From the NCBI GenBank assembly GCA_030609365.1, contig JAUWCJ010000001.1, positions 1,266 to 65,265 of the forward strand: 64,000 nt of DNA. The letters run 5' to 3'. Position numbers and translations under genes: made by a program. This document shows positions 10,540 through 54,948 of the stretch, one piece after another (positions within the stretch are counted from its first letter, which is position 1; every line of letters begins with the position of its first letter). The DNA comes from Candidatus Eiseniibacteriota bacterium. GTDB lineage: Bacteria > Joyebacterota > Joyebacteria > Joyebacterales > Joyebacteraceae. Below the pieces are notes generated by a model that did not search any database, was not told where the DNA came from, and saw only the letters and a program-made list of their open reading frames with translations.

Positions 10540-10574
10540 ATTTGAATAGTCGAACGGAAAGGGAGTAGTTAGAG

Positions 10575-10982: not shown

Positions 10983-11040
10983 GCGCAGGTCTCGGACACC
11001 CAGGCACGGCCTCGATAGCGAATAGTATCTGTAGGGTTCG

Positions 11041-11068
11041 CGCGGCTCCCATAGATGGGGGCCGCGCA
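11041..11068 (+). terminator. Candidate terminator hairpin downstream of nifU
   Basis: GCGCGGCTCCCAT-AG-ATGGGGGCCGCGC forms a near-perfect 11-13 bp stem. The downstream T-run is weak (ggtttcc). Confidence 0.35.
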
Positions 11069-11166
11069 TTGCGTACCGGTTTCCTGTTGACAGAGAGAGT
11101 GGTCCTGTCGTAGTCGGTGTTCACAGGTGATTATTCCGCACGCGCGCCACAATCAAGGAGGGCAGG

Positions 11167-11493: not shown

Positions 11494-11503
11494 GCGCGGA
11501 GCA

Positions 11504-21183: not shown

Positions 21184-21232
21184 CGTCCTCCGCCCCTACC
21201 TTGTGACACGCCGGCCTACTACCGCCGGTTGC

Positions 21233-22861: not shown

Positions 22862-22871
22862 CTCGTGCCCC

Positions 22872-23555
22872 CTAGCCTCTCGGCTCCATGTCTCGGTTGT
22901 TGTAGAGCTCGGCCAGGTCGGCCTGCTTCATCTTCGTCAACTTGTCCATCTCATCGTTGAACGTGCCGTCCGCCATCTCCTTGAGCCGGTCCTTCAGGTG
23001 CGGCGCCTCGGCGGCTACGTGACGCGAGTAGAGCCTGCGGCACAGAAGCGCGACCTGATACTGCACGATCTCCGCGGGACATCTCGAAGCGCAGAGCCCG
23101 CAGAGGATGCAGTCGAAGGAGAGGTCGGCGGCCTTTGCGATGTCGCCCCTGAGCGCGGCCTGGATGTACTCCATGACCTCGATGTCCTGAGGACAGGCCT
23201 TCGTGCACGTGTTGCAGGAGAGACAGCGGAAGACCTCCGGGTAGAGCGAGAGTATCGCATCGGCGGTCGGTTTCAGGTCCTCGATGTCGTAGGTCGCCTT
23301 GTTGCCCGGGAAGAACGGGATCTCGGCGAGGTACATCTCGTCCTGCACGACCTCCTGACAGGCGAGGCCGACCTTGAGACGGTAGTCGTCCTTTGTTCGG
23401 TAGACGGTTCCGCAGGCGCCGCAGAACGCTCCCCTGCACCCGCAGCCCCTCACGAACCGGTAGCCCGCGTACTCCATGGCCTTCATGATGGTGAGGTCGC
23501 CGGGGACCTCGTAAGGCTTGCCCATCACGTAGATGGTCACCATCTGTTCTGCCAT
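22872..23555 (-). CDS. Succinate dehydrogenase/fumarate reductase iron-sulfur-subunit-like (2Fe-2S + two 4Fe-4S motifs)
   Basis: C-x4-C-x2-C (CRGAFCGAC) 2Fe-2S motif plus two CxxCxxCxxxCP motifs (CLSCNTCTKACP, CILCGLCASRCP). Confidence 0.75.
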   Translation of the reverse strand: MAEQMVTIYVMGKPYEVPGDLTIMKAMEYAGYRFVRGCGCRGAFCGACGTVYRTKDDYRLKVGLACQEVVQDEMYLAEIPFFPGNKATYDIEDLKPTADAILSLYPEVFRCLSCNTCTKACPQDIEVMEYIQAALRGDIAKAADLSFDCILCGLCASRCPAEIVQYQVALLCRRLYSRHVAAEAPHLKDRLKEMADGTFNDEMDKLTKMKQADLAELYNNRDMEPRG

Positions 23556-23641
23556 CGTAGCTTCTCCCCCTTGTTTCCAGTCGGGACGTGGTCGCCGTCC
23601 GCGGACCGGCCGCCCGAGCCTTCGGGAACCGACCGTGTAGT

Positions 23642-24067
23642 CTAGGCGACCTTCTCCTGTTCCTTCAAGCCGAGCTCCAGAGACCCGAGCTCCTTGATCG
23701 TATCGACGAAATCGGACATCACGTGGACCAGCTTCTCTCCCTCGGCAGCGGAGATCCAGTCGAGCTGCAGACGCTCAGGATCTATGCCCACGTCCTCAAG
23801 CGTGCGCTTGAGGAACTGAACGCGGCGCATGGTCTTGTGGTTCCCCTCCTCGTAGTGACAGTCGCCGGGATGGCAGCCGCCGACGAGCACGCCGTCGGCA
23901 CCTTCCCGAAACGCCCAGAGGACGTGCTGAGGGTCGATGCGCCCCGTGCAGTTGACTCGCACGACCACGCCGTTCGGCGGGTACTGTTTCCGCGAGGTGC
24001 CGGCGAGGTCCGCGCCGGCGTACGTGCACCACTTGCAGAAGAAACAGACGATTCTCGGTTCGAACAT
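23642..24067 (-). CDS. mvhD: Methyl-viologen-reducing hydrogenase delta-subunit-like protein (MvhD)
   Basis: Motifs CFFCKWCTYAGAD, ..VNCTGRIDP.. and GADGVLVGGCHPGDCHYEEGN match the MvhD family. Its start lies 1 nt after the HdrA stop. Confidence 0.8.
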   Translation of the reverse strand: MFEPRIVCFFCKWCTYAGADLAGTSRKQYPPNGVVVRVNCTGRIDPQHVLWAFREGADGVLVGGCHPGDCHYEEGNHKTMRRVQFLKRTLEDVGIDPERLQLDWISAAEGEKLVHVMSDFVDTIKELGSLELGLKEQEKVA

Positions 24068-24068
24068 G

Positions 24069-26033: not shown

Positions 26034-26039
26034 GCCTCC

Positions 26040-26966
26040 CTAAAACAGACTCTTCTCCGCCAGAACGGGTAGCGGGTCCACGGAGTTGTCAGTGAAGTCC
26101 AGGTGCTTCTTGTCAATGCCCAGTGCAATCCCCAGAAGCTGTGTGAAGTAGACCACCGGGACACGACTGAACCCCTTGACGCGCTCGGCCATCTTCTCCT
26201 GATGCCTGTCGAGATTATAGCGGCAGAGCGGGCAGGTCGTGACGATGATGTCGGCGTTGCGTTTGAGCGCGGAGACGACGACGTTCTGTGAGCATGACAC
26301 TGCCAGCTCCTCGTCGTTGACGACCTGGAACCCCCCGCAGCACTCTGTCTTCATCGGGAAATCGACCGCTTCGCATCCGAGCGTCTCGAGGAATTCCTCG
26401 AAGATCGTGGGCTGCTCGGGGTCGTCGAACTTCATCTCGTTCTTGGGGCGAAGCAACATGCACCCGTAGTAGGGCGCCACCTTGAGACCTTCGAGCTTCT
26501 TCGTCACGGCGGAGGCGACTTTGTCGTAGCCGACCACATCGCGCAGCATCTCGATGTAGTGGAGAACCTCCACCTGCCCCTCGTAGTCCTCGTGCGTGTA
26601 GCTCTCTACCTTCTTGCGCGCCTCGGTGTCCGCGCGGAGAAACAGGTTAGTCTTGTCCCTCTTGTCCTCGTCGTCGCGCATCACGTTGTTGCAGCGCTTG
26701 AGAACGTTGTAGCAGAAGGAGCACAGCGTGACGACCTTGTCGCCTAGCCGGGACGCGTAGGACAGGTTCCTTACCCCTGCCAGGACGTCCATCACGCTGT
26801 CGGTCACGAGCGGGTACACGGCGCCGCAGCAGGTCCAGATGGCGAGTTCCTCGAGCTCGACGCCCAGGGCCAAAGCACATTCTCTTGCGGATGTGTCGAA
26901 GTCTCGTGCCCTCTCGTGAAGCGTACAGCCCGGGTAGTACGGGATCTTCATCTCTTTCTCCGGCAC
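26040..26966 (-). CDS. hdrB: Heterodisulfide reductase subunit B-like (two CCG domains)
   Basis: Two Cys-rich CCG-domain signatures: YYPGCTL..WTCCGAVY and YYGCMLLRP..TECCGGF. Confidence 0.8.
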   Translation of the reverse strand: MPEKEMKIPYYPGCTLHERARDFDTSARECALALGVELEELAIWTCCGAVYPLVTDSVMDVLAGVRNLSYASRLGDKVVTLCSFCYNVLKRCNNVMRDDEDKRDKTNLFLRADTEARKKVESYTHEDYEGQVEVLHYIEMLRDVVGYDKVASAVTKKLEGLKVAPYYGCMLLRPKNEMKFDDPEQPTIFEEFLETLGCEAVDFPMKTECCGGFQVVNDEELAVSCSQNVVVSALKRNADIIVTTCPLCRYNLDRHQEKMAERVKGFSRVPVVYFTQLLGIALGIDKKHLDFTDNSVDPLPVLAEKSLF

Positions 26967-26969
26967 GGT

Positions 26970-27413
26970 CTATCCGTTCAGCTTCCTCAATGCCCCGACC
27001 ACACCCATCTGCGGCGCATCCGACATCATCACCTTCGTCAACCCGTCCGCGTCGACCTTCGGTGTCGCGAGCCGGATCCGCAGGACGATGGCCCTCAGCG
27101 CGTCACAGATGCTCGAGAACTCGACGCCCTTCGGGCACCTAGACGCGCATTGCAGACACGACGCGCACGTCCATATGGTCTTCGAACTCAGAACCTCGTC
27201 AATCTGGCCGAGCTGAAGAAGCCTGATGACCTCACTCGGGATTATGTCCATCTCTTCGACGACGGGACACCCGGCCGAGCACCTGCCGCACTGGTAGCAA
27301 GCAAGGATGCTCTGCCCGGAGAGCGTTTCCACCCGGTCGATGGCCTCGTCCTTGACCATGCCCGCGGTGAGCCTGAGTCTCATCGATACCTCCAGGGTAC
27401 AGCTATAGACCAA
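26970..27413 (-). CDS. hdrC: Heterodisulfide reductase subunit C-like (2x4Fe-4S)
   Basis: CYQCGRCSAGCP and CASCLQCASRCP motifs, ~147 aa. The true start may be the internal Met (MRLRL..). The gap to hdrB is 3 nt. Confidence 0.75.
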   Translation of the reverse strand: MVYSCTLEVSMRLRLTAGMVKDEAIDRVETLSGQSILACYQCGRCSAGCPVVEEMDIIPSEVIRLLQLGQIDEVLSSKTIWTCASCLQCASRCPKGVEFSSICDALRAIVLRIRLATPKVDADGLTKVMMSDAPQMGVVGALRKLNG

Positions 27414-27680
27414 TTCGACCGGCCCCGGCCGCTGCTCACGCGATGGGGTCGTTCAAAGCGCCAGCTGCCTGTCAGAGCCGCGTCAGCGCGGTCGGTCGGT
27501 ACGAAAACCAGTCACCGCAACGTCAGCGGTCGGCGCGGCGGTGACATGTCGGTTGGATACTCTACTATGGAGCGCGCCACGAGTCAACCGCTTTCGGCCG
27601 CAAAACCCCACGAAAACGGCACATTTCTGCCCGAACAGCCGTGGACCACGCTCGTCCGCACGGCAGCCCGGAGGCGGGCA

Positions 27681-27709
27681 TCGACAGCACGATGGCCGCG
27701 CTGTATAAT
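27681..27709 (+). promoter_or_regulatory. Sigma-70-like promoter TCGACA-17-TATAAT for the beta-helix secreted protein gene
   Basis: -35 TCGACA at 27681-27686, a 17-nt spacer and a perfect -10 TATAAT at 27704-27709. RBS AAGGAGAGGAGG is at 27717-27728 and the ATG at 27737. Confidence 0.5.
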
Positions 27710-27736
27710 TTTAGCAAGGAGAGGAGGCGTGTCACG

Positions 27737-28798
27737 ATGCGAATGAGACTGCAGTGTTGTGCATTGCTTCTGCTTGCCACCCTGCCGGCCGCCGTCTGTG
27801 CCGGAGTCATCGTCGTCGACCCCGTGGGTGGCGGCGACTACGACAACATACCCGAGGCCATGTTCCACGGTACGGCTGACGACACGGTGCTCGTGTTGCC
27901 GGGCTTCTACGAGGTGGAGACGGGCATTCCTTACCCGTGGCCCATCCTCCTGACGGCCGACAGCCCCGCGCTCGTCAGCCAGGGAGGTGCTGCGCTGACG
28001 CTCATTTTCGGCAACGGTCTGATGCCGGCCCTCGACGTACGGGACGATACGTTCGGCGCGCGGGCCTTCATAGCAGGATTCACGTTCCAGTGGCTGGAGA
28101 CGCCGCTGGACTGGGGCTATCCGACGAGCGGGACCGTCTACTTCACGGACAACATCGTGAAGGGGTGCGAGACGGGAGTGGACGTCCGCATGGGTGAAGG
28201 GCTGGTCGCCAGAAACCTTATCGAGGGACCGGGCACCTACGGGATCCAGACCGGGCACTTCGAGGGCGTGATAGAGGACAACGAGGTGCACGGGTTCAAG
28301 GACGGCATCACGGGCGCGGACGGGAACACGGTGATACAGCGAAACCACATCCACGACAACGGGATCAGCGGTGTGGCGGGGTTCAACGACTGCATCGCCA
28401 TCGACAATGTCGTTGAGGACAACGGCTGGGCCGGGTTCAGCATCTCGTTCGACGCCCACCTGACGGGCAACGTCATCCGTGGCAACGGCACGGGCATCAA
28501 CTTCTGGGGTGGACCGCACAACGGGTTCCTGAACGGGAACGACATCTACGACAACGCGGAGTTCGCCGTGCACTCATACTGCGAAGAGCACATCCCCGTC
28601 CCGCCCGACTTCGACGCCACCATGAACTGGTGGGGTACAACCGACCCGGACGAAATCGCGGCGAGCATCGACGACTGCCACGACAGCATGTGGTCGGCCG
28701 TATGTTTCGTCGTCGAGCCGTGGTGCACGGCGCCCGGGTGCGACCCCACGCCCGCCGAGCTGTCGAGCTGGGGCGCGATCAAGGCTCTGTATAGATGA
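27737..28798 (+). CDS. Secreted right-handed parallel beta-helix repeat protein ending in SWGAIKALYR tag
   Basis: The start at MRMRLQCCALLLLATLPAAVCAG (signal peptide) is preferred to the longer ORF start at 27641. Repeated N-x-I-x-x-N / GxxG beta-helix turns run from NIVKGCETGVDV to GNDIYDNAEF, with an NWWGTTDPDEIAASIDD motif. The extreme C-terminus is ELSSWGAIKALYR. Confidence 0.6.
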   Translation: MRMRLQCCALLLLATLPAAVCAGVIVVDPVGGGDYDNIPEAMFHGTADDTVLVLPGFYEVETGIPYPWPILLTADSPALVSQGGAALTLIFGNGLMPALDVRDDTFGARAFIAGFTFQWLETPLDWGYPTSGTVYFTDNIVKGCETGVDVRMGEGLVARNLIEGPGTYGIQTGHFEGVIEDNEVHGFKDGITGADGNTVIQRNHIHDNGISGVAGFNDCIAIDNVVEDNGWAGFSISFDAHLTGNVIRGNGTGINFWGGPHNGFLNGNDIYDNAEFAVHSYCEEHIPVPPDFDATMNWWGTTDPDEIAASIDDCHDSMWSAVCFVVEPWCTAPGCDPTPAELSSWGAIKALYR

Positions 28799-29784
28799 TG
28801 GCAGAAGAACGGATCAGAAATGGATCGGCCGAGCCGGGGCTGAAACCCCGGCTCGGCGTCAGTACCTGTCTCCTGGGCGAGAACGTCCGCTACGACGGCA
28901 CGGAGAAGAGCGACCCGATCCTGCTTGGGGCGTTCGGAGACGCCGTTGAATGGGTGCCCATCTGCCCCGAGGTCGAGTGCGGCATGACCGTGCCCAGAGA
29001 CCCGATGCACCTGGCCGACGACCCGGACTCTCCGAGGCTCGTGACGACGGCCACGGGCGAGGACCAGACGGGGCGCATGCAGACGTGGATGCGGTCCCGT
29101 CTCGACGAGCTCGCCGGCTGTGACCCCTGGGGATTCGTGCTGAAGAGCAGATCACCCAGCTGCGGGCGGAGCGCTGTGCCGGTGCTGGACTCGACGGGCG
29201 CGCCGGCGGGCGAGGCCGCCGGGCTCTTCGCCGCCGCAGTCGCCGTGCGCTTCCCGCTGTTGCCGGTCGCGGACGAGAGCAGTCTGCGTGACGACTCGAT
29301 GTGGGACAACTTCATCGAGCGTCTCTTCTGCCTGAAGAGATACCGCGACTCCATGCAGCCGGAGGGGAGCCGCGAATCGCTGGTCGCGTTCCACGCCGCG
29401 CATGAGCTTCAGCTCATGGCGCACGACCGGGACGTTCTCCATGAGATGGAGGAACTGGTGGCGCGCTCGAGGAAGCTCCCACTGGATGAACTCTCTGCCA
29501 GATACGAGGAGCTCCTGACGACGGCGATGGAGTTCGTGGCCACCCCGGCGCAGAGTGCCGACGCTTTCCTGCACGCCCTGGGCCTCCTCGAGCGCTACAT
29601 GAACCCCGGCGAGAGGCAGGATGCGCTCGAGCTCATTGAGGAGCACCGCGGCGGGCGCGTCCCCTTGACCGTTCCCACGAAGCTCCTCGGGCGCTACATC
29701 CAGAAGTACCGCGTGGAGCACCTCGCCACTCAGTCCTGTTTCGCCTCGCACCCCAACGAACTGAAACTGCGAAATCGCTCCTGA
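28795..29784 (+). CDS. DUF523 (TudS-like) + DUF1722 fusion protein (YbgA family)
   Basis: N-terminal LGVSTCLLGENVRYDG..ILLGAFGDAVEWVPICPEVECGM matches DUF523 (Cys-rich 4Fe-4S site). The C-terminal helical half (..LVAFHAAHELQLMAH..) matches DUF1722. Confidence 0.65.
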   Translation: MMAEERIRNGSAEPGLKPRLGVSTCLLGENVRYDGTEKSDPILLGAFGDAVEWVPICPEVECGMTVPRDPMHLADDPDSPRLVTTATGEDQTGRMQTWMRSRLDELAGCDPWGFVLKSRSPSCGRSAVPVLDSTGAPAGEAAGLFAAAVAVRFPLLPVADESSLRDDSMWDNFIERLFCLKRYRDSMQPEGSRESLVAFHAAHELQLMAHDRDVLHEMEELVARSRKLPLDELSARYEELLTTAMEFVATPAQSADAFLHALGLLERYMNPGERQDALELIEEHRGGRVPLTVPTKLLGRYIQKYRVEHLATQSCFASHPNELKLRNRS

Positions 29785-29864
29785 ATCCGGCTCTGGCGCG
29801 GACGCGGGGCAACACAAGACGGCGCGCACAGGCGGCGCGGCCGGAGGAAGCGGAGTGACGCACC

Positions 29865-30650
29865 ATGGGCGAACTCGAGGTCAGGGAACTCAGGTCCGGC
29901 GAGGAATCACTATGGCTCGGGTCTGATGCGGAAGGCGGGCCCGGTGCGGACGGCGAATCCGAGAAGCTCACCAAGTTCCGCCGCTTGTTCGAGGAGCGGT
30001 CCTCGCAGGACCCCCGCTCGTTTCTCGTGGCACTCGACGGGCCACGCGCCGCCGGGCGACTGAAGGGACTCTTCCTCAGCGACAAGCTCTACTTCGTCCA
30101 GGAACTCCACTGCGCGGAGGGTCTCCCCTGCAGCGTGGTCGAGGACGCGCTTGCGAGCTTCCTCGGTGACTCGTTCTCGCGCGACGGCATCGGGATCCTG
30201 AGCTGGGACCGGACGAAGAGCGCGGAGACCAACGCCGCGCTCGAGCGCGCGGGGCTTCTGATCGAGAAGAAGAAGGTGTTCGTTGCTCGCGGCCTGAAGG
30301 GTGACCTCCCCCGGCCCGGGACGCACTTCGCGTTCCGGACGCTTGCAGAGGCCGGGAAGGACGAGTTCCTGCCCGTGATGACGGAGGCCGCGGCTACGGG
30401 CGGGCCCTGCACGCCTCGGGGCTTTCGATGCTCGCTGAGCGCGGCGTCACACGGTACGTGGGCTCCACCGACACGCGGAACGGCCCGATGCTCAAGGTCT
30501 TCGAAGCGAACGGATGCCCGCAGACCGGCATACAGCGCTTCTACAAGCCCCCCGCCCGGTAGCGGCGGCGCACCGGACCGATTCTCGTTCGCGGTAGCAG
30601 CGGCAGTGTGCCCGATTCTCCTTTTGACTGCAGGCAAGCTCTCCCTATAG
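29865..30650 (+). CDS. GNAT-like acetyltransferase candidate, probably frameshifted near 30400-30430
   Basis: The first ~180 aa read as a protein (..ALERAGLLIEKKKVFVARGL..). After ~30420 the called frame becomes low-complexity. The +2 frame gives a clean GNAT-like C-terminus ..LAERGVTRYVGSTDTRNGPMLKVFEANGCPQTGIQRFYKPPAR* ending at 30562. Confidence 0.35.
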   Translation: MGELEVRELRSGEESLWLGSDAEGGPGADGESEKLTKFRRLFEERSSQDPRSFLVALDGPRAAGRLKGLFLSDKLYFVQELHCAEGLPCSVVEDALASFLGDSFSRDGIGILSWDRTKSAETNAALERAGLLIEKKKVFVARGLKGDLPRPGTHFAFRTLAEAGKDEFLPVMTEAAATGGPCTPRGFRCSLSAASHGTWAPPTRGTARCSRSSKRTDARRPAYSASTSPPPGSGGAPDRFSFAVAAAVCPILLLTAGKLSL

Positions 30651-30702
30651 AGTCATCTCTACGTATAGTCATCTCCATCATGGAGTCGTCTTCACTGACG
30701 AC
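30624..30702 (+). promoter_or_regulatory. Promoter-like TTGACT-16-TATAGA plus operator-like repeats upstream of the XDH-family operon
   Basis: -35 TTGACT at 30624-30629 and -10 TATAGA at 30646-30651. Direct repeats TATAGAGTCATCTC (30646-30659) and TATAGTCATCTCC (30664-30676). Palindrome TCCATCATGGA (30674-30684). Inverted repeat GTCGTC-N6-GACGAC (30685-30702). The region is AT-rich for this genome. Confidence 0.4.
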
Positions 30703-30739: not shown

Positions 30740-33085
30740 ATGAGCAAGCGAGAGATTCAGGATGGTCCGCCCGAGAGGGACCGCACCGCGGCGGTCGGCG
30801 CGCCGGTCAAGCGCGTTGACGCGTCCGACAAGGTCACCGGACGGGCCGTCTATCTGGACGACATGGTCATGCCCGGCGTCCTGCACGCCGCGCTGGTCTT
30901 CCCCGGGTGCGCCCACGCGGTGCTCAGAGGGGTGGACGCGTCGGCCGCGAGGTCGATGGCTGGCGTGCGTTCCGTCCTGACAGCCGACGACATCCCCGGA
31001 GAGAATCAGGTCGGCGTCATCGATACCGATCAGCCGCTTCTTCCCTTCGACAGGATAAGATACGAAGGAGACGCCGTGGCCGTCGTTGTGGCCGAGACGG
31101 CGGTGCTGGCACGCGAGGCGGCGGACGCCGTGTCCGTCGACCTGACGGAACTGCCGGGCGTCTTCGACGCCGTCCGTGCGATGGAGCCGGACGCGCCGCT
31201 CGTTCACGAGAGCGGGAACGTTTTCCTCCACGACAAGGTCAGGAAGGGCGATGTCGACGCCGGGTTCGATGCGGCCGACATCATAGTGGAGCGCGAGTTC
31301 CGCACCCACCACCAGGAACACTGCTACCTCGAGCCTCTGGCGGCGCTCGCTGTACCTGCGGACAACGGGTCGATGACGGTCTACGGGACGATGCAGTGCC
31401 CGTTCTACGTGCAGAAGGCCGTGGCCGATGTGCTGGGGCTTCCACTCGCATCCGTCCGCGTCATCCAGACCGTCACGGGCGGTGGGTTCGGTGGGAAGGA
31501 GGATGTACCCAGCGAGATTTGTGCGTGCGCGGCGCTCGCCGCGTGGAAGACGGGAAGCGCGGTCAAGCTCGTCTACTCCCGGGAAGAGGATTTCCTCCGC
31601 TCGAGCAAGCGCCATCCCATGCGCGTGACGTTCAAGCTGGGCGCCAAGCGCGACGGCACGTTCACGGCCGCGAAGATTCGCGCGGTCGCGGATGGCGGAG
31701 CCTACACGACACTGTCCCCGGTCGTCGTGTTCCGCGCGGCCGCGCACGCGACGGGCCCCTACGAGATCCCGAATGTCTGGACAGACGTCTACGGCGTCTA
31801 CACCAACCGCCAGACGGCGGGCGCATTCAGGGGGTTCGGGCAACCTCAGGTCATCTTCGCCAACGAATCGGTCATAGACGAGGTGGCCGACGCCATCGGG
31901 ATGGACCCCGTGGACATCCGTCTCAAGAACTGCCTGGACGTCGGGAAGCGGACGGCGACGAACCAGCTTCTGACAGAGAGCGTGGGGCTGAGAGAGACGC
32001 TTGAACTCGCACGGGAGCTCTCGGGATGGGACGGGAAGCGGGCGGCGCAGGGAGGACGCGGCGGCGAACAACCGGGACGCGCATCGGACGCTCGCGACCA
32101 CATCAAGCGCGGCATCGGGGTCGGGTCCATCTATTACGGTGTCAGCCTGGGCGCGAAGGGACTGGCGCTCGACGGGTCCGGCGCCCACATCAACGTCTAC
32201 CGCGACGGCTCGGTCAGGATCGGCGTGGGCGGCACAGAGATGGGACAGGGCCTCCTGACCGTACTCGCACAGATCGCGGCCGACAGTCTCGGCGTGCCGG
32301 TCGGCTTCGTTCACGTCGAACGCGCGGACACGAGCGTCGTCCCGGACAGCGGCCCGAGCGTCGCTTCGCGGACCACACTCATGACTGGAAACGCCGTGAT
32401 CGACGCCGCGCGGAAGCTTAGGACCGTCATGGGAGAGGTCGCGGCCGACAGTCTGGGGCTCGACCCGAGCGAGATCGAGTTCGATGGTGGTACCGTCGGT
32501 TCAGCAGAGAAGAACGTGACCTTCGCGGAGCTCGCCGAGCAGTGTTGGGTGAGAAACGTCAGCACGGCCGCCGACGGCTGGTACGCCGCACCCGAGTCCA
32601 CGTTCGACGAGAACGGCCAGGGTGACGCCTACGCCGTCTACTCGTACGCGACACACGTAGCGGAGATTGAAGTGGACACGGAGACCGGACGGGTAACGGT
32701 CGTGAGGATCACGGCCGCGCACGACGTCGGGCGAGTGATGAACCCCGTGACGCTCGAGGGGCAGATAGAGGGAGGCGTGCTGCAGGGCATCGGGATGGCG
32801 CTCTACGAGCAGATGAAGAGCAAGGGCGGAGCGGTCGTGACGCCGGACTTCTCCACCTACATCATCCCCACGGCGATGGACACGCCGGCGATCCGGACCG
32901 TGTTCGTCGAGGATCCCTATTCGAAAGGTCCCTTCGGCGCGAAGGGCATCGGCGAGACTCCGGCCATGCCGGGAGCCGTTGCCGTGGCGAATGCCGTGTC
33001 CAATGCGCTCGGCGTGCGATTCCACGAGCTGCCCCTGACCCCTGAGCGCGTCAGGCGGGCGGTGTCTGAGAGGAAGAATTCATGA
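30740..33085 (+). CDS. Xanthine dehydrogenase/aldehyde oxidase family molybdopterin-binding subunit (orphan large subunit)
   Basis: The start at MSKREIQ.. (RBS GAGGTGA 5 nt upstream) is preferred over the ORF start at 30608. Ald_Xan_dh hammerhead and MoCo-binding domain motifs are present (..KRVDASDKVTGRAVYLDDM.., ..QTVTGGGFGGKED.., ..GVSLGAKG.., ..IEGGVLQGIGMALYE..). It has no signal/Tat motif, no N-terminal 2Fe-2S domain and no adjacent small or FAD subunit genes. Confidence 0.85.
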   Translation: MSKREIQDGPPERDRTAAVGAPVKRVDASDKVTGRAVYLDDMVMPGVLHAALVFPGCAHAVLRGVDASAARSMAGVRSVLTADDIPGENQVGVIDTDQPLLPFDRIRYEGDAVAVVVAETAVLAREAADAVSVDLTELPGVFDAVRAMEPDAPLVHESGNVFLHDKVRKGDVDAGFDAADIIVEREFRTHHQEHCYLEPLAALAVPADNGSMTVYGTMQCPFYVQKAVADVLGLPLASVRVIQTVTGGGFGGKEDVPSEICACAALAAWKTGSAVKLVYSREEDFLRSSKRHPMRVTFKLGAKRDGTFTAAKIRAVADGGAYTTLSPVVVFRAAAHATGPYEIPNVWTDVYGVYTNRQTAGAFRGFGQPQVIFANESVIDEVADAIGMDPVDIRLKNCLDVGKRTATNQLLTESVGLRETLELARELSGWDGKRAAQGGRGGEQPGRASDARDHIKRGIGVGSIYYGVSLGAKGLALDGSGAHINVYRDGSVRIGVGGTEMGQGLLTVLAQIAADSLGVPVGFVHVERADTSVVPDSGPSVASRTTLMTGNAVIDAARKLRTVMGEVAADSLGLDPSEIEFDGGTVGSAEKNVTFAELAEQCWVRNVSTAADGWYAAPESTFDENGQGDAYAVYSYATHVAEIEVDTETGRVTVVRITAAHDVGRVMNPVTLEGQIEGGVLQGIGMALYEQMKSKGGAVVTPDFSTYIIPTAMDTPAIRTVFVEDPYSKGPFGAKGIGETPAMPGAVAVANAVSNALGVRFHELPLTPERVRRAVSERKNS

Positions 33086-35082
33086 GATGCCACGCAGGAC
33101 CGTCCGCACCGTTGCTGACGCTCCTCATGCTCGCCGTGGCGCTCGCTGCCGCGACCGCCACGGCGAGCGAGTCTCCGGATGCAGGAAACCATGGCAGCGC
33201 CGAGTACCTGCCCATGCGAGATTCGTCCAAGCTCCTCGCTGCCTCGCCGTCCGCCGGCGTGATGGAGGAGGCTCTGCGAGCTCTCGCCCTCACGCGTGAC
33301 GACCTCTCGTTCCGGACGGACTACGCCGACCAGCCGGATTCGTTCCGGATAGCCGTGGTCGACCGGCTGCTCGCGCGCCCTCTCGAGACGGAGAGCTACG
33401 TCGCAGGGTTCGCGGATGAGATCTGCGCCATCGCCTCTCTGGAGGGACTCGTGGGCATCTGCGCCCGCGACCTCGATCTGATCATCGATGAACCGACGCG
33501 CGTCGAACCAACGGAGCCCATGGAACCCAAGTCGATCGGACCGACCGCGCTCGATGTGCTGCTGCCCGCGATGAGTGAGGCCGCGGGGCTGATCGCCACG
33601 GCGTTCGATGGCCTGTCGGAGGAGCAGCGGCGGTTCGTGGCGCTTCACGCGCCGTCGATCCTGGACGAGGAAGAGTTCGACCCGGACCGGCCGATCGACG
33701 AACGGGACCGCGAGGCCGAGGAGGAAGAGGCGCTCGCGGACGAGCTCCTCCGCATTGCCAGTCTCGTTGACTACGATCGTCTGGCGGCCGCGGGCGCCGT
33801 GATAGCGCGAGCGGTTGACAGCTCCATCCCGCTCCTGGTGGACGACCCGATGAACCTCCCGAGAACGCATACCGACTACGAGCTCGAGAGGACGGCTTCC
33901 TCGTGGCTGGCCTCGGGCGACGTCCTGAACATCATGGAGACAGAGGCAGGGACCGTGATCATCGGGGGGCCGGGACGTACCACATATAGAGGGGGCGTCG
34001 CGCTCATCATCGATGTCGGCGGCGACGACGTATACGTGGGCGACGTGGCAGCGGCCCTGAGGGATCTTCCCGTGTCCATCGTGATAGACCTCTCCGGCGA
34101 CGACATCTACCGCGGTGACACGCACTCGCTGGGCGCGGGGTTCATGGGTGTAGGCGTGCTCGCGGATCTCGAGGGTGACGATGTTTACACCGCAGGAGAC
34201 TTCTCGCTGGGTGCGGGTCTGTTCGGGGTCGGGATTCTGGTGGACGCAGCGGGCAACGACAGCTACTCGGGCGACACGTGCACCGAGGGCGCCGGCGCGT
34301 TCGGCATCGGAGTCCACCGGGACAAGGGCGGCAACGACAGCTATAACGCCGCGCTCTTCTCGCAGGCTTTCGGGTTCGTCGGAGGCGCGGGGCTGCTGCA
34401 CGATGTGGCAGGGAACGACGTCTACTTCGCTGGAGGGAAGTACACCGACGAGATACGGTACTTCGACCACTACATCAGCCTCTCACAAGGATTCGGGTTC
34501 GGCTGGCGGCCCGACGCCTCCGGTGGCATCGGGATCCTCATCGACGAGGCCGGGAACGATGTCTACGTCTCCGATATATTCGGCCAGGGTTCAAGCTACT
34601 GGTTCGCGGTCGGGGGGCTGGTCGACTACAGCGGGAACGACCAGTACGTCTCCTACCAGTACGCCCAGGGCGCGGGCACTCACATCACGGTCGCCGCACT
34701 GATCGACTGCGACGGCGATGACAACTACGTGTCGAAGGGCGTGTCGCAGGGGTGTGGCCACGATCTTGCCGTAGGCATCCTGCACGACCTGGCCGGTGAC
34801 GACAGCTACACCTGCCACGACCTCTCCCAGGCCGCCGGAAACGCCAACGGCATCGGGATCCTGATGGACGACGCGGGCAACGACGCGTACTCGGTCCGGA
34901 ACCCGAACAACACACACGGGTATGGGAACCTCCGGCGCGACTATGGGAGCATCGGCGTCTTCCTGGACTGCGGTGGCGCCGACTCCTACTCCGGCAGAGG
35001 AGCGGACGGCACGTGGTGGACCGGGAGCATGCACGGCATCGGGGTCGATGAGGAGAAGGCGTTGGGAGGTGGTGCTGAATGA
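33082..35082 (+). CDS. Secreted protein with ~12 tandem ~26-aa GxGxhxDxxGNDxY repeats (predicted beta-helix/beta-roll-like)
   Basis: Signal peptide MRCHAGPSAPLLTLLMLAVALAAATATA. Residues ~305-655 are repeats such as VSIVIDLSGDDIYRGDTHSLGAGFMG, VGVLADLEGDDVYTAGDFSLGAGLFG and VGILVDAAGNDSYSGDTCTEGAGAFG. The start overlaps the XDH stop (ATGA). Confidence 0.6.
   Translation: MRCHAGPSAPLLTLLMLAVALAAATATASESPDAGNHGSAEYLPMRDSSKLLAASPSAGVMEEALRALALTRDDLSFRTDYADQPDSFRIAVVDRLLARPLETESYVAGFADEICAIASLEGLVGICARDLDLIIDEPTRVEPTEPMEPKSIGPTALDVLLPAMSEAAGLIATAFDGLSEEQRRFVALHAPSILDEEEFDPDRPIDERDREAEEEEALADELLRIASLVDYDRLAAAGAVIARAVDSSIPLLVDDPMNLPRTHTDYELERTASSWLASGDVLNIMETEAGTVIIGGPGRTTYRGGVALIIDVGGDDVYVGDVAAALRDLPVSIVIDLSGDDIYRGDTHSLGAGFMGVGVLADLEGDDVYTAGDFSLGAGLFGVGILVDAAGNDSYSGDTCTEGAGAFGIGVHRDKGGNDSYNAALFSQAFGFVGGAGLLHDVAGNDVYFAGGKYTDEIRYFDHYISLSQGFGFGWRPDASGGIGILIDEAGNDVYVSDIFGQGSSYWFAVGGLVDYSGNDQYVSYQYAQGAGTHITVAALIDCDGDDNYVSKGVSQGCGHDLAVGILHDLAGDDSYTCHDLSQAAGNANGIGILMDDAGNDAYSVRNPNNTHGYGNLRRDYGSIGVFLDCGGADSYSGRGADGTWWTGSMHGIGVDEEKALGGGAE
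33994..35050 (+). repeat. In-frame tandem repeat array (about 12 units of ~78 nt) encoding the GNDxY repeats
   Basis: The periodicity is visible in the translation: each unit is hydrophobic-G-h-L-h-D-x-x-G-(N/D)-D-x-Y followed by a Gly-rich linker. The units have diverged at the nucleotide level, so they are not recent duplicates. Confidence 0.5.
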
Positions 35083-36110
35083 GAACCTTCGGTACTGTCC
35101 TTCTTCTGCTCGTTCTGATGGCCGGACCCGCCGTCTCCCAGAATGTGGGTGCGGAGGTTGAGACGGAGGTCGCTGAGTCCGACACGGCCGAGCTCGCGGA
35201 GCTCACGCCCGTGGAGCTGTTTCTGCGGGCGTCCTCGTCGGCGCTCCAGTTCGAGCACATGCGCGAGCCGTCCCGGTGCATCCTGGTATCGAACCACGAG
35301 GAGTCGCTCCCCTATCTCGTCACCCGGCTCGACACGGACGACGCGAGGGAGCGGCACGCGCTGGAGGACATCCTTGTCAGGATCGGCACCGCGGCCGCCG
35401 ATCCGGTCATAGAGGCGTTCCTGTTCGAGGCCGGGAGAACGGAGACAACTCGCGGCGCCAGGCTGGCGGCGGCGGTGCTGGGCAAAATCGGTGATGCCCG
35501 CGCCGTGGGCCCGCTCGCCTCCGTCCACGACCATCACGACTGGAAGGTGCGCGGGGCCATCGGCGGAGCGCTCGGCAGGATCGGCACGGCCGAGACGGTT
35601 CATCCTCTAGTTTCACTTCTCCTGGACGAGAACGAGGCGGTCAGGAAGAGCGCGGCCGTCGGTCTGAGGCGCGTCGCCGTACGCGCCCGTGACGACGAGG
35701 CGCCGGACCACGACGCGGCCAAGGCCCTCGACGCGGACGTCATCGAATCGCTCGCGCGTGCCCTCGGGGATCCCAGCTACGCGGTGAGATACAGCTCGGC
35801 CGATGCGCTTGCCCGCATAGGTGAGACGGCGCTGCCGCTCCTGTTTGAGATCGGTGAGGGCGGGGCGGCCGAGGCTCGATTGATGGCGCTTCGGGCCGCC
35901 GGCAAAGTCGGCTCTCGTAGGGCTCTCAAGCCGCTGGTGAGAGCGCTCAAGGACTCCGACTGGGCGGTGCGGGCGCACGCCGCAGCCGCCATCGGAACGA
36001 TCGGAGCAGACAAGCGGAGCCGTCGAGCGCTGGAGCGTCTGGTCGCTTCCGACCCCCATCCGTTCGTCGTCGCATCGGCCGCCGCCGCACTCGACTCGGA
36101 AGACCGCTAG
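35079..36110 (+). CDS. Secreted HEAT-repeat protein (PBS-lyase HEAT-like repeats)
   Basis: Signal peptide MRTFGTVLLLLVLMAGPAVSQ. Repeated ~30-aa units carry ..D/E..VR..A..ALG.IG... (e.g. DWKVRGAIGGALGRIG, NEAVRKSAAVGLRRVA, SYAVRYSSADALARIG, DWAVRAHAAAAIGTIG). The start overlaps the upstream stop (ATGA). Confidence 0.65.
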   Translation: MRTFGTVLLLLVLMAGPAVSQNVGAEVETEVAESDTAELAELTPVELFLRASSSALQFEHMREPSRCILVSNHEESLPYLVTRLDTDDARERHALEDILVRIGTAAADPVIEAFLFEAGRTETTRGARLAAAVLGKIGDARAVGPLASVHDHHDWKVRGAIGGALGRIGTAETVHPLVSLLLDENEAVRKSAAVGLRRVAVRARDDEAPDHDAAKALDADVIESLARALGDPSYAVRYSSADALARIGETALPLLFEIGEGGAAEARLMALRAAGKVGSRRALKPLVRALKDSDWAVRAHAAAAIGTIGADKRSRRALERLVASDPHPFVVASAAAALDSEDR

Positions 36111-38182
36111 CCTCCGCTGCGGGCGGCCATGAGCTCCCGCAGACGGGCCAGGTTGGCCGCGATGCCGGGGTCGTTCGGGCTCAGACGCCTGGCCTCCTCC
36201 AGTTCGCGCAGCGCCTCTTCGTAGCGTCCGGCCATTGCCAGGATGACACCGAGGTCATGCCGCGCCTGTGCATAGGTCGGGTCTATCTCGACGGCACGAG
36301 CGTACGCTCCGGCCGCCTCCGGGAGCCTCCCGGTCTCCTCGAACACCCTGCCGAGCGCGTCCCACGCCTCTGTGAATCGAGGATCGGCCATCACCGCGCA
36401 CTTGAGGTGGTACTCCGCCCGCTCGAGGTCGCCCTCCTGCGCCAACACCAGGCTCAGGTTCATGTGCGCCTGCTCCGTGTACTGGTCGAGAGCGATCGCT
36501 TCCTCGAACCACGCCTTCGCCTCCGCGACCTCTCCCCGCCCGAGCAGGAAGCTCCCGATGTTGTTCCGAACGGACGCGAGGCTCGAGTCCTTCTCGGCCG
36601 ATGACAGATACGCGGAGAGCGCCTCGTCGCTGCGACCCAGCTCTTCGAGCGCCAGGCCCATGCTGTTGTACGCCTTTGCGTATCCGGGCGATATCTCTAT
36701 GGCGCGGCGGTACTCCCTCACGGCGTTCTCGTACATCCCCTGCGCAGCACTGGCGCGCCCGAGGGTCATGTGCGTCTGAGCGCGGTCTCCCACGTGTGTG
36801 TCGTAGAAATCGTGGTTCACGAAAAGCCCTATCCCGGCGAGCGCCAGCAGCGCGACTGCGAGTTCCTTCACCCTGCCTCGCGCCGCGAGTCCGCACAGCC
36901 TGAGAACGGCCGCCGACGCAAACAGGAGGAGAAACGGAACAAGCGGCAACCTGAAGCGGGCGTTGACGAAGAACAGGAGGACGCCCGCCGTGTAGGACAG
37001 AACGAAGAGCATGGCGAGCGTGGCTGCCTTGTTCCTCCGTGCGGTGAAGAACATGCCGAGCACGGCCAGCGGCGCCATGATTCCGAAGTTGAGCCACCTG
37101 AGCCAACGGAACACCGGTGACATACGACCGAAGAAGTAGATGTCCTTGTTGTTGGCCAGCTCATAGCTGTCCCAGAAGAGCACGAACTTCCGGACGTAGA
37201 GCCTGGCAGCGGCCCCGGGGTTTCCGAGGAGAAACTCCCTTCCCCTCCCGTACCAGAAGCCCGATACCTCGCTCGGCTTCAGATCGCGCCCCAGCTGGGA
37301 TTCCGCTATCCGAACGGCGTCCTCGTTCTCCCATGACTCCCCGAGCACCGGCAGCACCGCCGACGCGCCGTCCGACGCGGAGTTGTTCCCGATGAAGAAG
37401 TTGATGCCGCCCTGAGACGCGATGGGAACGAAGTCCCGCTCGACGGCGTAGTTCCGCAGCGTCACGGGAAGAATCACCGCAGCGACACCGAGCACGACGA
37501 CCGCGAACCGCGCCGCACCCGCCTTGAACGCCGCCGGAAGTTCCACCGGCGCGCCGGCTTCGCCGGAGGTGCTTCGCGCCCGCCACCACATCCAGCAGAA
37601 CAGCGCCGGCAGGAACACGAGAACACTGGGGCGCGCGATGCCGGATATCCCCATCACGGCTCCCGCCGCGAACCAGCGTCCGCGGCCCGGTGACTCGTCC
37701 GCGCGCAGAAGCGCGCTCATCAACAGGACGTCGAGGAGCACTACCAGCGAAACAATCAGAAGCTCGTTGCTGAAGTAGAGGAACAGCGGATAGAGAGCGG
37801 CGACGGCCGCTCCCAACAACGCCTCCCTCTCTCCGAACATGCGCCTGCCGAGGAAGTACACGGCAACCGGAGTCAGGGCCGTGCAGGTCGCCTGCACAAG
37901 GCGCGCCGCCTGCAGGCTCTCCCCGAGTACCGAGAAGACGAGACCGAGGAGGTACGGATAGAGCGGCGCTCTGAAGAACACCGTGCTCCCCAGCCAGTCG
38001 CCCGCCGCGAGCGCCCTGGCCCACTCCACGTGGTACAGCTCATCCAGTATCGGGAAGCCCGCGAGCGGGCTCCCGCGCAGGTGAAGCACGTACACGAACC
38101 GGAGCACCCACGCTACTGCAAAGATGACTCCCGCCCTCAGAAGCAGCCTCTTCCGGATCTCCGCGTCGCGTTTCGGGACCAA
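36107..38182 (-). CDS. GT-C membrane glycosyltransferase (PMT_2/ArnT-like, GT39/83 family) with C-terminal TPR repeats
   Basis: N-terminal polytopic region begins DELYHVEWARALAAGDW..FFRAPLYPYLLGLVFSVLG..RLVQATCTALTPVAVYFLGRRMFG, typical of PMT_2/ArnT-family glycosyltransferases with ~10+ TM helices. The C-terminal ~250 aa are TPR repeats. Confidence 0.7.
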   Translation of the reverse strand: MVPKRDAEIRKRLLLRAGVIFAVAWVLRFVYVLHLRGSPLAGFPILDELYHVEWARALAAGDWLGSTVFFRAPLYPYLLGLVFSVLGESLQAARLVQATCTALTPVAVYFLGRRMFGEREALLGAAVAALYPLFLYFSNELLIVSLVVLLDVLLMSALLRADESPGRGRWFAAGAVMGISGIARPSVLVFLPALFCWMWWRARSTSGEAGAPVELPAAFKAGAARFAVVVLGVAAVILPVTLRNYAVERDFVPIASQGGINFFIGNNSASDGASAVLPVLGESWENEDAVRIAESQLGRDLKPSEVSGFWYGRGREFLLGNPGAAARLYVRKFVLFWDSYELANNKDIYFFGRMSPVFRWLRWLNFGIMAPLAVLGMFFTARRNKAATLAMLFVLSYTAGVLLFFVNARFRLPLVPFLLLFASAAVLRLCGLAARGRVKELAVALLALAGIGLFVNHDFYDTHVGDRAQTHMTLGRASAAQGMYENAVREYRRAIEISPGYAKAYNSMGLALEELGRSDEALSAYLSSAEKDSSLASVRNNIGSFLLGRGEVAEAKAWFEEAIALDQYTEQAHMNLSLVLAQEGDLERAEYHLKCAVMADPRFTEAWDALGRVFEETGRLPEAAGAYARAVEIDPTYAQARHDLGVILAMAGRYEEALRELEEARRLSPNDPGIAANLARLRELMAARSGG

Positions 38183-38742
38183 TGGACCTCCATCTCTGAG
38201 GTGCGCTCACGGCCTCATAACAGCGCTTCGTCAAGATTATTTGCGCTCGTCCACTCGCGTGCGGAGCGAACGCAGAACCTATCCTAGCGGAAACAGGCCG
38301 CGACACAAAGCAAGCATGCCAAGCCCGACGCCCTGCGTAGACGGCGTCAAAGCGACATTACGGCGATATGGGGCAATTGGCCTGAATCCCTCGCACACCG
38401 CATCGAGACAGGAAAACACCGTCTGACTTCCTGCTCAACTTGTCTCAACATGTGCGCTTTGTACGAAAAACTCATTGACCCGGAGGCGGGGATGCTATAG
38501 ACTACTAGTCGAACTACGGGAGATTATCACCAAGCACATGCGAGCGTGATTGTGTGTCGCCTGGGCTCACACGAGTTCAGGTGGCAAGTGTGTGCAGGTG
38601 CCGAGTCGGGGGCCGGCATCTTCACCGTGCATCCGCGTCGACTGATGATGCAGCAGTGCTTGGTGGTGAAGCAACATCTGGCTACTGGTCAATTCGAAGT
38701 GAAGCAGAGAGTAACTCACAAGAAGGAAAGGAGACGGACGGC

Positions 38743-39405
38743 ATGAAAAGGCTAACGTTTGCAGCTGTTGTGCTGGCGTTCGCGCTCCTCGTTGTGCAGA
38801 CCGCCGCGGCCGACGATTCGTACATGATCGGCATGCAGGGAGTCGGCAGCCTGATGAAGAGTCCCGTTGTCTACAGCGGGAGCTTCATGTGGGGTCTCGT
38901 TGGTTCGTGGGAGATCACGCTCGACGACTCCATGTGGCCCGGCGAGGCAGACAGCACCGCGAGGTTCGACTACATATGGGACAACTTCTTCGCCGACCAC
39001 TACATCGACACGACGGGTGCGGAGAGCTGGACCGGTTACTTCGATGGCGCGACACTGATGGCGGCTCCGCGCTTCCGGTTTGACACCATCTCTCCGGTAG
39101 GCGCGATCGAGGGCGACATCACCTTCTCGATTCTCGTGCGCGACTGGTACGCGGACGGGATACTGTCGCAGCAGGAAAAGCATCACAACCTGAACCTGAG
39201 TGCGACGCTCAGTCTGAATCCGAGCCTCGGCGAGGGCTATTTCGAGAATATGTGCGGGCACGGTTCGGTCAGCTCGGGCAACTTCAACTTCCATAACCCA
39301 CCGCTGGACGACAACCTGCAGATAGTCGGACAGATCCAGACCTACACTTGCCCCAGCCCGGTGGAAGAGACGACCTGGGGCGCGATGAAGGCGCTGTTCA
39401 GGTAG
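38743..39405 (+). CDS. Secreted protein, paralog 1 of a tandem pair, ending in TWGAMKALFR tag
   Basis: The start at MKRLTFAAVVLAFALLVVQTAAADD (RBS AGGAAAGGAG) is preferred to the ORF start at 38554. It shares SPVVYSGS.., GSWEITLDD..WP, YIWDN and GYFDG with the downstream paralog. The C-terminus is EETTWGAMKALFR. Confidence 0.55.
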   Translation: MKRLTFAAVVLAFALLVVQTAAADDSYMIGMQGVGSLMKSPVVYSGSFMWGLVGSWEITLDDSMWPGEADSTARFDYIWDNFFADHYIDTTGAESWTGYFDGATLMAAPRFRFDTISPVGAIEGDITFSILVRDWYADGILSQQEKHHNLNLSATLSLNPSLGEGYFENMCGHGSVSSGNFNFHNPPLDDNLQIVGQIQTYTCPSPVEETTWGAMKALFR

Positions 39406-39484: not shown

Positions 39485-40132
39485 ATGCGCGCACTTCTGA
39501 TAGTTTTGGCTGTTGCGGCCCTTGCAACTGCGGCCTACGGCCAGGAGACGTTTGTTTGGTTCTACGGCGCGGGAACGGGCGACTTCATGGACAGCCCCGT
39601 GGTCTTCGGCGGCGCCATGGATCCCGGCGGTGACATAGAGCTCGGATCGTGGTCAATCACGATCCCGGACGACGGTTGGCCCACTGACCCGGTCGACCGG
39701 TCCACCTACATCTGGAACACGTACTACGCGCCGAACTACACACCCGGCAACCCGAGCTTCTGGAAGGGCTACTTCGACACAGAGCACGGTGCACCCGACA
39801 TGAACGCTCTGTTGATCGTCGACGACACGAACGGCGGCGTCATGACCGGTATCTGCTCCGTTGAGATCCAGGTTCAGGATCTGAACAACAACGGCGTGCT
39901 CGACGAGGGCGAGTTCTGCAGCGGCAGCCTTTCCGGTCTCGTCATCATCATCCGGGACGGCACGGGCGTGTACGACGGCATGTGCGGAACGGGCAACTAC
40001 TTCGGCAGCTACATCAAGGACTGCCCGCTCACGACCGAGACCTGGAACTTCGGTATGTATCTCTGGCTCGAGGACTGCACCACGCCGGTCGAGGACGCGA
40101 CCTGGGGCGCCATCAAGGCCCTGTATCAGTAG
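39485..40132 (+). CDS. Secreted protein, paralog 2 of a tandem pair, ending in TWGAIKALYQ tag
   Basis: Signal peptide MRALLIVLAVAALATAAYG. Motifs SPVVFGGA.., GSWSITIPDDGWP, YIWNT and GYFDT match the upstream paralog. The C-terminus is EDATWGAIKALYQ. Confidence 0.6.
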   Translation: MRALLIVLAVAALATAAYGQETFVWFYGAGTGDFMDSPVVFGGAMDPGGDIELGSWSITIPDDGWPTDPVDRSTYIWNTYYAPNYTPGNPSFWKGYFDTEHGAPDMNALLIVDDTNGGVMTGICSVEIQVQDLNNNGVLDEGEFCSGSLSGLVIIIRDGTGVYDGMCGTGNYFGSYIKDCPLTTETWNFGMYLWLEDCTTPVEDATWGAIKALYQ

Positions 40133-40266
40133 TTCGGATTTCGCGAGCACCAGGAGCACCCGGCCCGCGATATACCTGACACGAGTCCTCGTACTGCGGT
40201 GCGGGGACTCGTCAGATGAATCAGGGTAGCGTGGCAGGTGCTCTGCAAACAGGAACAACGATACAG

Positions 40267-54938: not shown

Positions 54939-54948
54939 AGGAGACCTG

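Follow-up and report, generated by a model that had tools for sequence, protein, structure and literature searches.

Among described systems, the closest counterparts to the first product of the locus reported here are molybdenum (Mo)-hydroxylase large subunits: nicotinate dehydrogenase (Eubacterium barkeri, 3hrd), Rhodobacter capsulatus XdhB (1jro_B), and 4-hydroxybenzoyl-CoA reductase (Thauera, 1rm6_A). The locus lies in a 64-kb stretch of Candidatus Eisenbacteria DNA (G+C ~64%), all of which was read and which we refer to as the window. Based on open reading frame (ORF) and third-position G+C analysis, three consecutive plus-strand genes encode an XDH-family Mo-cofactor-binding large subunit (hereafter XDH), an exported repeat protein (REP), and an exported HEAT-repeat protein (HEAT). 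XDH aligned with all three of the above subunits at E values of ~1e-100, the best matches in PDB, and it shares their three domains and their set of Gln, Glu, Arg, Phe, and Glu residues. It differs from these systems in that no gene for a small (2x[2Fe-2S]) or flavin adenine dinucleotide (FAD) subunit lies next to it, and it scores below the equivalog cut-offs. It also carries Leu at the position that, in the XdhB alignment, is equivalent to bovine Phe1009.

The periplasmic aldehyde oxidoreductase PaoABC (5g5g) was weighed as a possible precedent for placing an XDH-family enzyme outside the cytoplasm. It belongs to the same family as XDH (E = 6e-61); however, the locus has no PaoA or PaoB genes, and XDH has no twin-arginine or other signal peptide, so nothing suggests that it is exported. 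Escherichia coli XdhD, which has its own Fe-S domain and copurifies with YgfM, is also unlike XDH. The nearest outgroup to XDH, at 50-54% identity, comprises the large subunits of reductive uricolytic-type clusters (XdhD/XdhA-YgfK/UacX-SsnA-HyuA-YgeX-YgeW; PMC12507026), which likewise lack CoxS/CoxM neighbors and have the same catalytic residues. These stand-alone subunits have neighbors of the amidohydrolase, PreT-like, DHO_dh, PALP, and carbamoyltransferase types, whereas the window has none of these: genes for an SsnA-type amidohydrolase, a YgfK/UacX reductase, a carbamoyltransferase, and a PALP lyase were found around the 50-54% relatives only.

For REP, the most similar described structure is region IV of MpAFP (3p4g), a surface adhesin of Marinomonas primoryensis in which RTX-like (RTX, repeats-in-toxin) units of 19 residues, xGTGNDxuxuGGxuxGxux, form a Ca2+-bound solenoid at the cell surface (PMC3492233). 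The GNDxY turn of REP resembles the GNDxu part of this repeat, and the folds are similar. However, the REP repeats are ~26 aa long rather than 19 aa, the identity is 18%, and REP has no HemolysinCabind match. In addition, REP has a Sec signal peptide rather than a C-terminal type I secretion system (T1SS) signal, an extra helical N-terminal domain, and an obligatory HEAT partner. The HEAT protein shares HEAT_2 and HEAT_PBS matches and a superimposable solenoid with PBS-lyase-type HEAT-like proteins and αRep scaffolds; unlike these proteins, it is exported (by a signal peptide or by fusion behind REP), always travels with REP, and has no lyase context.

Our preferred explanation, to which we assign a probability of roughly 0.6, is that a single Eisenbacteria clade has brought two unrelated functions into one operon: a Mo-hydroxylase encoded without partners, and an envelope module composed of REP and HEAT (REP-HEAT). 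The three genes would form a transcription unit that only this clade of Candidatus Eisenbacteria has, with XDH and REP-HEAT probably cotranscribed, and we infer that no functional link joins them. The XDH-REP-HEAT arrangement is a lineage-specific variant of ordinary operon organization.

The Mo-hydroxylase subunit and its relatives

XDH was assigned to its family on the basis of both its three-domain architecture and its active-site residues. The Pfam scan identified Ald_Xan_dh_C (1e-24), MoCoBD_1 (9e-89), and MoCoBD_2 (1e-88), all full length, and detected no Fer2/Fer2_2, Fe-S, or FAD domain. An earlier note on this DNA had described a Mo-cofactor subunit of 782 aa without a 2Fe-2S domain; the domain is indeed absent, and the length is corrected here to 781 aa. 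Residues Q219, E254, R332, F366, and E739 of XDH align to Q197, E232, R310, F344, and E730 of XdhB, and all five are invariant in 26 of 26 aligned sequences, consisting of the window protein, 18 orthologues, and seven relatives at 50-53% identity. Within the proposed active site, catalysis would use Glu739 as its base, the substrate would be positioned by Glu254 and Arg332, and the residue at the Mo=O group would be Gln219. The N-terminus of XDH contains neither an RR motif nor a hydrophobic segment.

Against the NCBIfam equivalog models, XDH scored 570 for its best match, NF043082 (XdhA; cut-off 780), 554 for TIGR03196 (cut-off 784), and 547 for NF007426 (cut-off 916). Because these scores fall below every curated cut-off, no substrate was assigned to the enzyme; most likely, the substrate would be a purine-like N-heterocycle. 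Neither XDH nor REP matched a PADLOC defense model, and the HEAT protein gave generic HEAT matches only.

We searched for genes encoding the small and FAD partner subunits within the window and around homologous genes. We scanned 44 of the window's 46 candidate genes with Pfam and identified no FAD_binding_5 (CoxM-type) or Fer2_2 (CoxS-type) gene; the other two are 29859-30650, which was covered by NCBIfam and alignment, and 57602-57865. Scanning all six frames for the CoxS signature C[GA][FYWM]C..G gave no match in the window or in 80 other loci, and no CoxS or CoxM gene was found within up to 10 kb in the 21 loci that encode XDH orthologues. The earlier claim that CoxS/CoxM-like genes are not adjacent to XDH thus extends to the whole window and to the orthologous loci. 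When Eisenbacteria CoxS, CoxM, and XdhC sequences were used as tblastn queries against 80 XDH-centered metagenome loci, matches were found beside distant homologues only. These homologues, at 35-44% identity to XDH, nearly always adjoin CoxS, with or without CoxM and XdhC, which indicates that the detection of partner genes works.

On the minus strand, upstream of the three genes, the window contains an Hdr/Flx-like cluster (21233-27452) with FAD_binding_2, Fer2_4+Fer4, FlpD (MvhD), HdrA-like, HdrB-like (CCG), and HdrC-like genes, and a gene for a HycI-like protease lies beside it (20704-21195). This Hdr/FlpD cluster was considered as the electron partner of XDH and rejected, as the HdrC query was unmatched in all 80 REP-centered loci (described below), including those with XDH orthologues.

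Six relatives of XDH at 50-54% identity were examined together with their neighbors. Three of them (L083, L166, and L167) are stand-alone large subunits in a recurrent cluster of uncultured bacteria, which also encodes an SsnA-like amidohydrolase, a PreT-like Fe-S flavoprotein, a DHO_dh/Fer4 (UacX-like) reductase, a second amidohydrolase, a PALP enzyme, and two carbamoyltransferases (OTCase-like); in L083 only, a carbamate kinase gene comes next. The composition of this cluster matches that of the reductive uric acid degradation clusters, in which XdhA/XdhD homologues occur “with or without” the FAD subunit YgfM (PMC12507026). The fourth relative (L084) is also a stand-alone large subunit, in an unrelated context. 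The remaining two have the canonical subunit arrangement: an Asgard locus, and the Eisenbacteria metagenome-assembled genome (MAG) GCA_030017955.1, with two large-subunit genes, two Fer2/Fer2_2 genes, two FAD_binding_5 genes, and XdhC and MocA-like genes.

Because its nearest relatives also stand alone, the lack of neighboring partners is a trait of the XDH branch rather than a peculiarity of the window. In the best-supported reading, XDH is an ordinary cytoplasmic Mo-hydroxylase catalytic subunit from a branch whose genes usually lie away from those of the redox partners. Electrons would pass from XDH to an Fe-S or flavin partner encoded away from the locus, either a canonical small/FAD pair located at some other genomic site or a different Fe-S flavoprotein. 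In the sister group, the PreT-like flavoprotein encoded next to the Mo subunit may be the redox partner.

The REP-HEAT module

REP begins with a signal-peptide-like segment of Sec type (MRCHAGPSAPLLTLLMLAVALAAATATA/SE) and contains 12 repeats of ~26 aa, each with one G[N/D/A]DxY turn (six GND, five GDD, and one GAD), in agreement with the signal peptide and the dozen or so GNDxY repeats proposed earlier. It has no match in Pfam or NCBIfam, a PDB search with a REP profile returned noise only, and an exact-sequence look-up of REP returned no record. Using a 66-sequence alignment, AlphaFold2 predicted a helical domain followed by a β-solenoid, with a predicted local distance difference test score (pLDDT) of 82 and a predicted template modeling score (pTM) of 0.86. 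Based on comparison with this model, the solenoid is closest to the Ca2+-bound region IV of MpAFP; it would be RTX-like and probably stabilized by Ca2+. REP has none of the hallmarks of RTX/hemolysin proteins that we looked for, namely a PF00353 match, tandem GGxGxDxUx nonapeptides, and a T1SS C-terminal signal.

An unusually invariant polar set of residues in REP is kept across phyla (R459, Y460, D462, H463, R476, P477, W507, H534, C558, H560, D561, R618, and R619) and lies within the motifs RYFDH, RPDASGG, and SQGCGHD. Such conservation is what a dedicated site for binding or catalysis would show, and it argues against a rod with a structural role only. REP would combine a helical domain with an RTX-like β-solenoid that carries an invariant polar patch.

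L001, a near-identical JGI contig (99.65%), has two deletions in REP, of 11 bp and 7 bp, at positions 11243 and 11690 of that contig (window 33430-33440 and 33888-33894); together they remove 18 bp, and the reading frame is restored. Both deletions are located near a contig end: the JGI assembly breaks inside REP, where one contig ends and another begins (L001; L165). We treated the deletions as assembly or strain noise in repeat-coding DNA, not as biology.

The third gene product matched HEAT_2 (6e-33), HEAT (6e-18), and HEAT_PBS (1e-7) in Pfam and has a signal-peptide-like N-terminus, as expected from its earlier description as a HEAT-repeat protein with a signal peptide. In the model of a fused REP-HEAT protein, the tandem HEAT repeats form an all-helical solenoid, and Foldseek aligned this part to αRep/HEAT solenoids (TMt ~0.75).

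REP is widely distributed. We identified 1,580 homologues at E <= 1e-3 in a 90%-clustered protein collection and at least 2,289 representatives at E <= 1e-30 among 50%-identity clusters, and REP is encoded in at least 547 species-representative genomes. By the taxon names in the record titles, these genomes are labeled Candidatus Eisenbacteria, Zixibacteria, TA06, WOR-3, Stahlbacteria, GN15, Gemmatimonadota, Calditrichaeota, and “Ignavibacteria.” We fetched 80 REP-centered loci, 74 of them with downstream DNA; in 66 of these 74, REP has a HEAT partner, either as the following gene or as a fusion.

Seven REP-HEAT fusions occur among the first 120 REP matches. A C-terminal extension of at least ~230 aa is present in 55 of 104 REP representatives that carry QGCGHD, and four of the five extensions tested are HEAT repeats, which puts the fused form at about half of the family representatives. 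The fusions have an acidic linker in place of the HEAT signal peptide, as expected if REP and HEAT act in one extracytoplasmic compartment. For the natural fusion P0041 (964 aa), the predicted model reached a pTM of 0.83, which is compatible with a defined arrangement of the two parts. The window has the two-gene form, REP followed by HEAT, each with an export signal. We conclude that REP-HEAT is an autonomous, widely conserved, and often fused module, and the fusions indicate that the two proteins very probably work together. Both proteins would be exported by Sec signal peptides, and the HEAT solenoid would bind REP, forming an envelope complex that binds or processes some ligand.

Two other architectures occur among the REP relatives P0445 (1,265 aa), P0461, P0475, and P0487 (~800 aa). 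In one, a few relatives have an N-terminal PDZ domain instead (PDZ-REP); the other is RibD(deaminase+reductase)-REP-HEAT, which could stem from a gene call that ran an upstream cytoplasmic gene into REP-HEAT.

One alternative concerns only the REP-HEAT half of the locus. REP could be an enzyme that acts outside the cytoplasm on a β-helix scaffold (for instance, a glycan lyase, a hydrolase, or an epimerase), with HEAT as its regulatory or targeting subunit, instead of a Ca2+-stabilized binding or adhesin-like solenoid. The positions R459, Y460, D462, H463, R476, H534, C558, H560, D561, R618, and R619, all invariant across phyla, lie in or around one solenoid insertion, and the N-terminal PDZ domain of some relatives is also found in periplasmic processing enzymes. 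However, REP has no match to CAZy-type Pfam families, and its G(N/D)DxY turns are similar to xGTGNDxu, an RTX-like motif for Ca2+ (PMC3492233). We hold the enzyme alternative as a tentative possibility and do not favor it.

The junction between XDH and REP

The stop codon of XDH (TGA, 33083-85) overlaps the ATG of REP at 33082, and that of REP (TGA, 35080-82) overlaps the ATG of HEAT at 35079; both ATGA overlaps had been recognized in the earlier note. A purine-rich stretch resembling a Shine-Dalgarno (SD) sequence is found upstream of the REP start and of the HEAT start, and the ATG of XDH is preceded by an SD-like GAGGTGA. In a consensus scan of an 11-kb region, seven promoter-like sites were observed (1.1 expected). 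None of these is at the XDH/REP or REP/HEAT junction; in addition to the candidate upstream of XDH (Table 1), a site lies within XDH (30977-31006). A hairpin at 35068-35099 is terminator-like but weak (4 of 12 pairs are G-C), and such sites are not above shuffled expectation.

Tight junctions are common in the window. Among its 36 same-strand junctions, four can be 4-nt overlaps, and ~10 more have a gap of <=10 nt. Two genes upstream of XDH, a NosD-like β-helix gene with a signal peptide (27641-28798, plus strand) overlaps a cytoplasmic DUF523/DUF1722 gene (28795-29784) by 4 nt (ATGA). The DUF523 product resembles 2-thiouracil desulfurase, and the pair at 27641-29784 is a second exported and cytoplasmic “translationally coupled” pair in the window. 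Since tight junctions, including one of this mixed type, are so common, overlap alone says little about whether two products are functionally linked. Cytoplasmic and exported products often share an operon, and it is the conservation of the arrangement in relatives, not the overlap itself, that is informative.

To survey upstream neighbors, the window proteins were aligned by tblastn against the 80 REP-centered loci. Within this set, XDH is directly upstream of REP only in Eisenbacteria-type loci (L002-L009, L011, L012, and L014), where identity to the window proteins is 59-95% for REP and 69-93% for XDH. The ATGA overlap between the two genes is kept in 8 of these 11 orthologous genome loci. 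Metagenome orthologues of XDH with downstream DNA (65-83% identity; L086-L093/L110) have REP as the next gene in 10 of 10 cases, and HEAT follows in nine; the tenth contig ends inside REP. The search of other genomes that the earlier note had proposed thus recovered the same three-gene synteny, conserved across the Eisenbacteria clade.

Outside this clade, other genes precede REP. In Zixibacteria-type loci (L016-L041), tatC is directly upstream, and its stop codon overlaps the REP start by 4 nt in ~16 loci; in L034, for example, the two genes are at 9150-9884 and 9881-11833. Upstream of the tatC-REP pair are nrdR, dCMP deaminase, SAM hydroxide adenosyltransferase, and cutA genes. Tat export of REP, which the tatC neighbor had brought to mind, was rejected, as REP N-termini lack a twin-arginine motif. 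The upstream genes in other groups include sigma-54 regulators and pilins. Within Eisenbacteria, locus L013 keeps the downstream synteny and has a divergent PAS-GGDEF gene in place of XDH; L013 nests inside the XDH-linked clade in a neighbor-joining tree without support values.

Because the upstream neighbor of REP depends on the lineage, the XDH-REP link looks like local operon history. The junction would reflect operon compaction in the lineage, entailing cotranscription and possibly translational coupling, and no physical or mechanistic partnership. The earlier note had suggested that the partners could form an extracytoplasmic scaffold. Of that reading, a tight, conserved unit and the REP/HEAT partnership are supported, the latter by the fusions; a single functional system that includes XDH is not supported, given that REP-HEAT occurs without XDH elsewhere and with tatC instead in Zixibacteria-type loci.

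Several observations nevertheless weigh against separating XDH from REP-HEAT in this way. In all 21 loci (11 from genomes, 10 from metagenomes) with downstream DNA and an XDH orthologue of >=65% identity, REP comes next, mostly with ATGA, and the linkage stays complete while the genes upstream of XDH vary; such linkage could reflect selection for coexpression. Shared ancestry explains much of the conservation and is inseparable from selection, since the whole block downstream is syntenic too. In addition, no XDH partner was found in 64 kb of this genome, and the canonical cluster belongs to a different MAG. On the REP-HEAT side, the contact between the two proteins is suggested by the fusions and a single pTM value. 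The linkage is explained equally well by the broad synteny among these related genomes and by how hard overlapping genes are to separate.

A functional link between XDH and REP-HEAT in Eisenbacteria, with both parts coexpressed for one task and the operon under selection, is in our judgment unlikely. One such task might be the capture or processing of a substrate outside the cell by the envelope module, with the Mo enzyme oxidizing a purine-like product of its breakdown. The unbroken adjacency fits such a link, as does the retention of the 4-nt overlap across REP identities of 59-95% while the genes upstream of XDH were shuffled. The position of L013, which has no XDH, inside the XDH-linked clade suggests that the link is ancestral, albeit in a tree lacking support values. 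However, neither L013 nor any other phylum has XDH with REP-HEAT, and the tatC overlap is equally tight in another lineage. The block downstream of HEAT (the PMT/TPR gene, two ORFs of unknown function, and the C25 peptidase gene; ~10 kb) is equally syntenic in the clade, so genome closeness suffices as an explanation. Furthermore, XDH is in a different compartment from REP and HEAT, and the unit contains no transporter or catabolic gene.

Less probable still is that XDH in this clade has dispensed with the classical Fe-S and FAD subunits and become functionally tied to the exported REP-HEAT proteins, which would be an undescribed system combining a cytoplasmic molybdoenzyme with an envelope β-solenoid-HEAT pair; the 21 of 21 adjacencies and the lack of a visible partner subunit would both fit it. 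We regard as highly improbable a noncanonical role (an idea that the earlier note raised in general terms) in which XDH has lost its classical redox function and acts, with no Fe-S or FAD partner, in a noncatalytic or novel way connected with the exported proteins, for instance as a chaperone or scaffold: small and FAD genes are absent within up to 10 kb of every orthologue, whereas they are nearly always adjacent in the 35-44% homologues, and the scores fall below every equivalog cut-off, but the catalytic and Mo-site residues are all invariant, the three domains are full length, the missing signal peptide sets XDH in another compartment, and the stand-alone subunits that are normal in its sister group sit in uricolytic-type metabolic clusters beside other Fe-S flavoproteins.

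Gene map and implications

The features of the three-gene unit are listed in Table 1.

Table 1. Positions of the three genes, their junctions, and the candidate promoter within the 64-kb window
Feature	Position	Strand	Details
Sigma-70-like promoter candidate, TTGACT-18-TAGAGT	30624..30653	+	87 nt upstream of XDH start; consensus match only
XDH-family Mo-cofactor-binding large subunit (XDH), 781 aa	30740..33085	+	Pfam PF01315, PF02738, PF20256
ATGA overlap, XDH stop/REP start	33082..33085	+	
REP, exported, 666 aa	33082..35082	+	Signal peptide aa 1-29; helical domain ~aa 48-270; β-solenoid aa 277-656
β-Solenoid part of REP	33910..35049	+	G(N/D)DxY turns; invariant motifs RYFDH, RPDASGG, SQGCGHD
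ATGA overlap, REP stop/HEAT start	35079..35082	+	
HEAT, exported HEAT-repeat protein, 343 aa	35079..36110	+	Signal peptide ~aa 1-20; Pfam HEAT_2, HEAT, HEAT_PBS; conserved REP partner

Upstream of XDH, a GNAT-like gene (29865-30650, plus strand) appears disrupted, with ~200 bp missing relative to a 314-aa homologue in L004. Its C-terminal acetyltransferase motif (GRGYGRALH...) is readable only in a different frame, and the tail of the ORF passes through the promoter-like site of the XDH unit.

The stop codon of HEAT overlaps that of a convergent gene encoding a PMT_2+TPR glycosyltransferase (36107-38182, minus strand), which is syntenic in all Eisenbacteria loci. This product is one of two large membrane glycosyltransferase-like proteins with C-terminal TPR arrays in the window, the other being a TMEM260-like+TPR protein (54907-57642, plus strand). 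Farther downstream on the plus strand are two conserved ORFs with no Pfam or NCBIfam match (38554-39405 and 39485-40132) and a gene (40216-44835) for a 1,539-aa C25-peptidase/FG-GAP/β-helix protein with a C-terminal FlgD_ig domain; the Eisenbacteria loci keep all three in synteny with REP-HEAT.

With XDH and REP-HEAT read as separate occupants of one operon, the idea of a molybdoenzyme subunit built into a secreted scaffold is mostly dissolved. For XDH, the existence of a branch of XDH-family large subunits without CoxS/CoxM neighbors raises the question of which redox partner serves them. The uncharacterized part of the locus is the REP-HEAT family, which belongs to a known fold class and has no Pfam or NCBIfam model and no solved relative. 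REP-HEAT is an exported solenoid pair that spans phyla, with thousands of clusters and hundreds of species, and both its invariant polar patch and its frequent position beside housekeeping genes suggest that it has a core role in the envelope of these uncultured groups.

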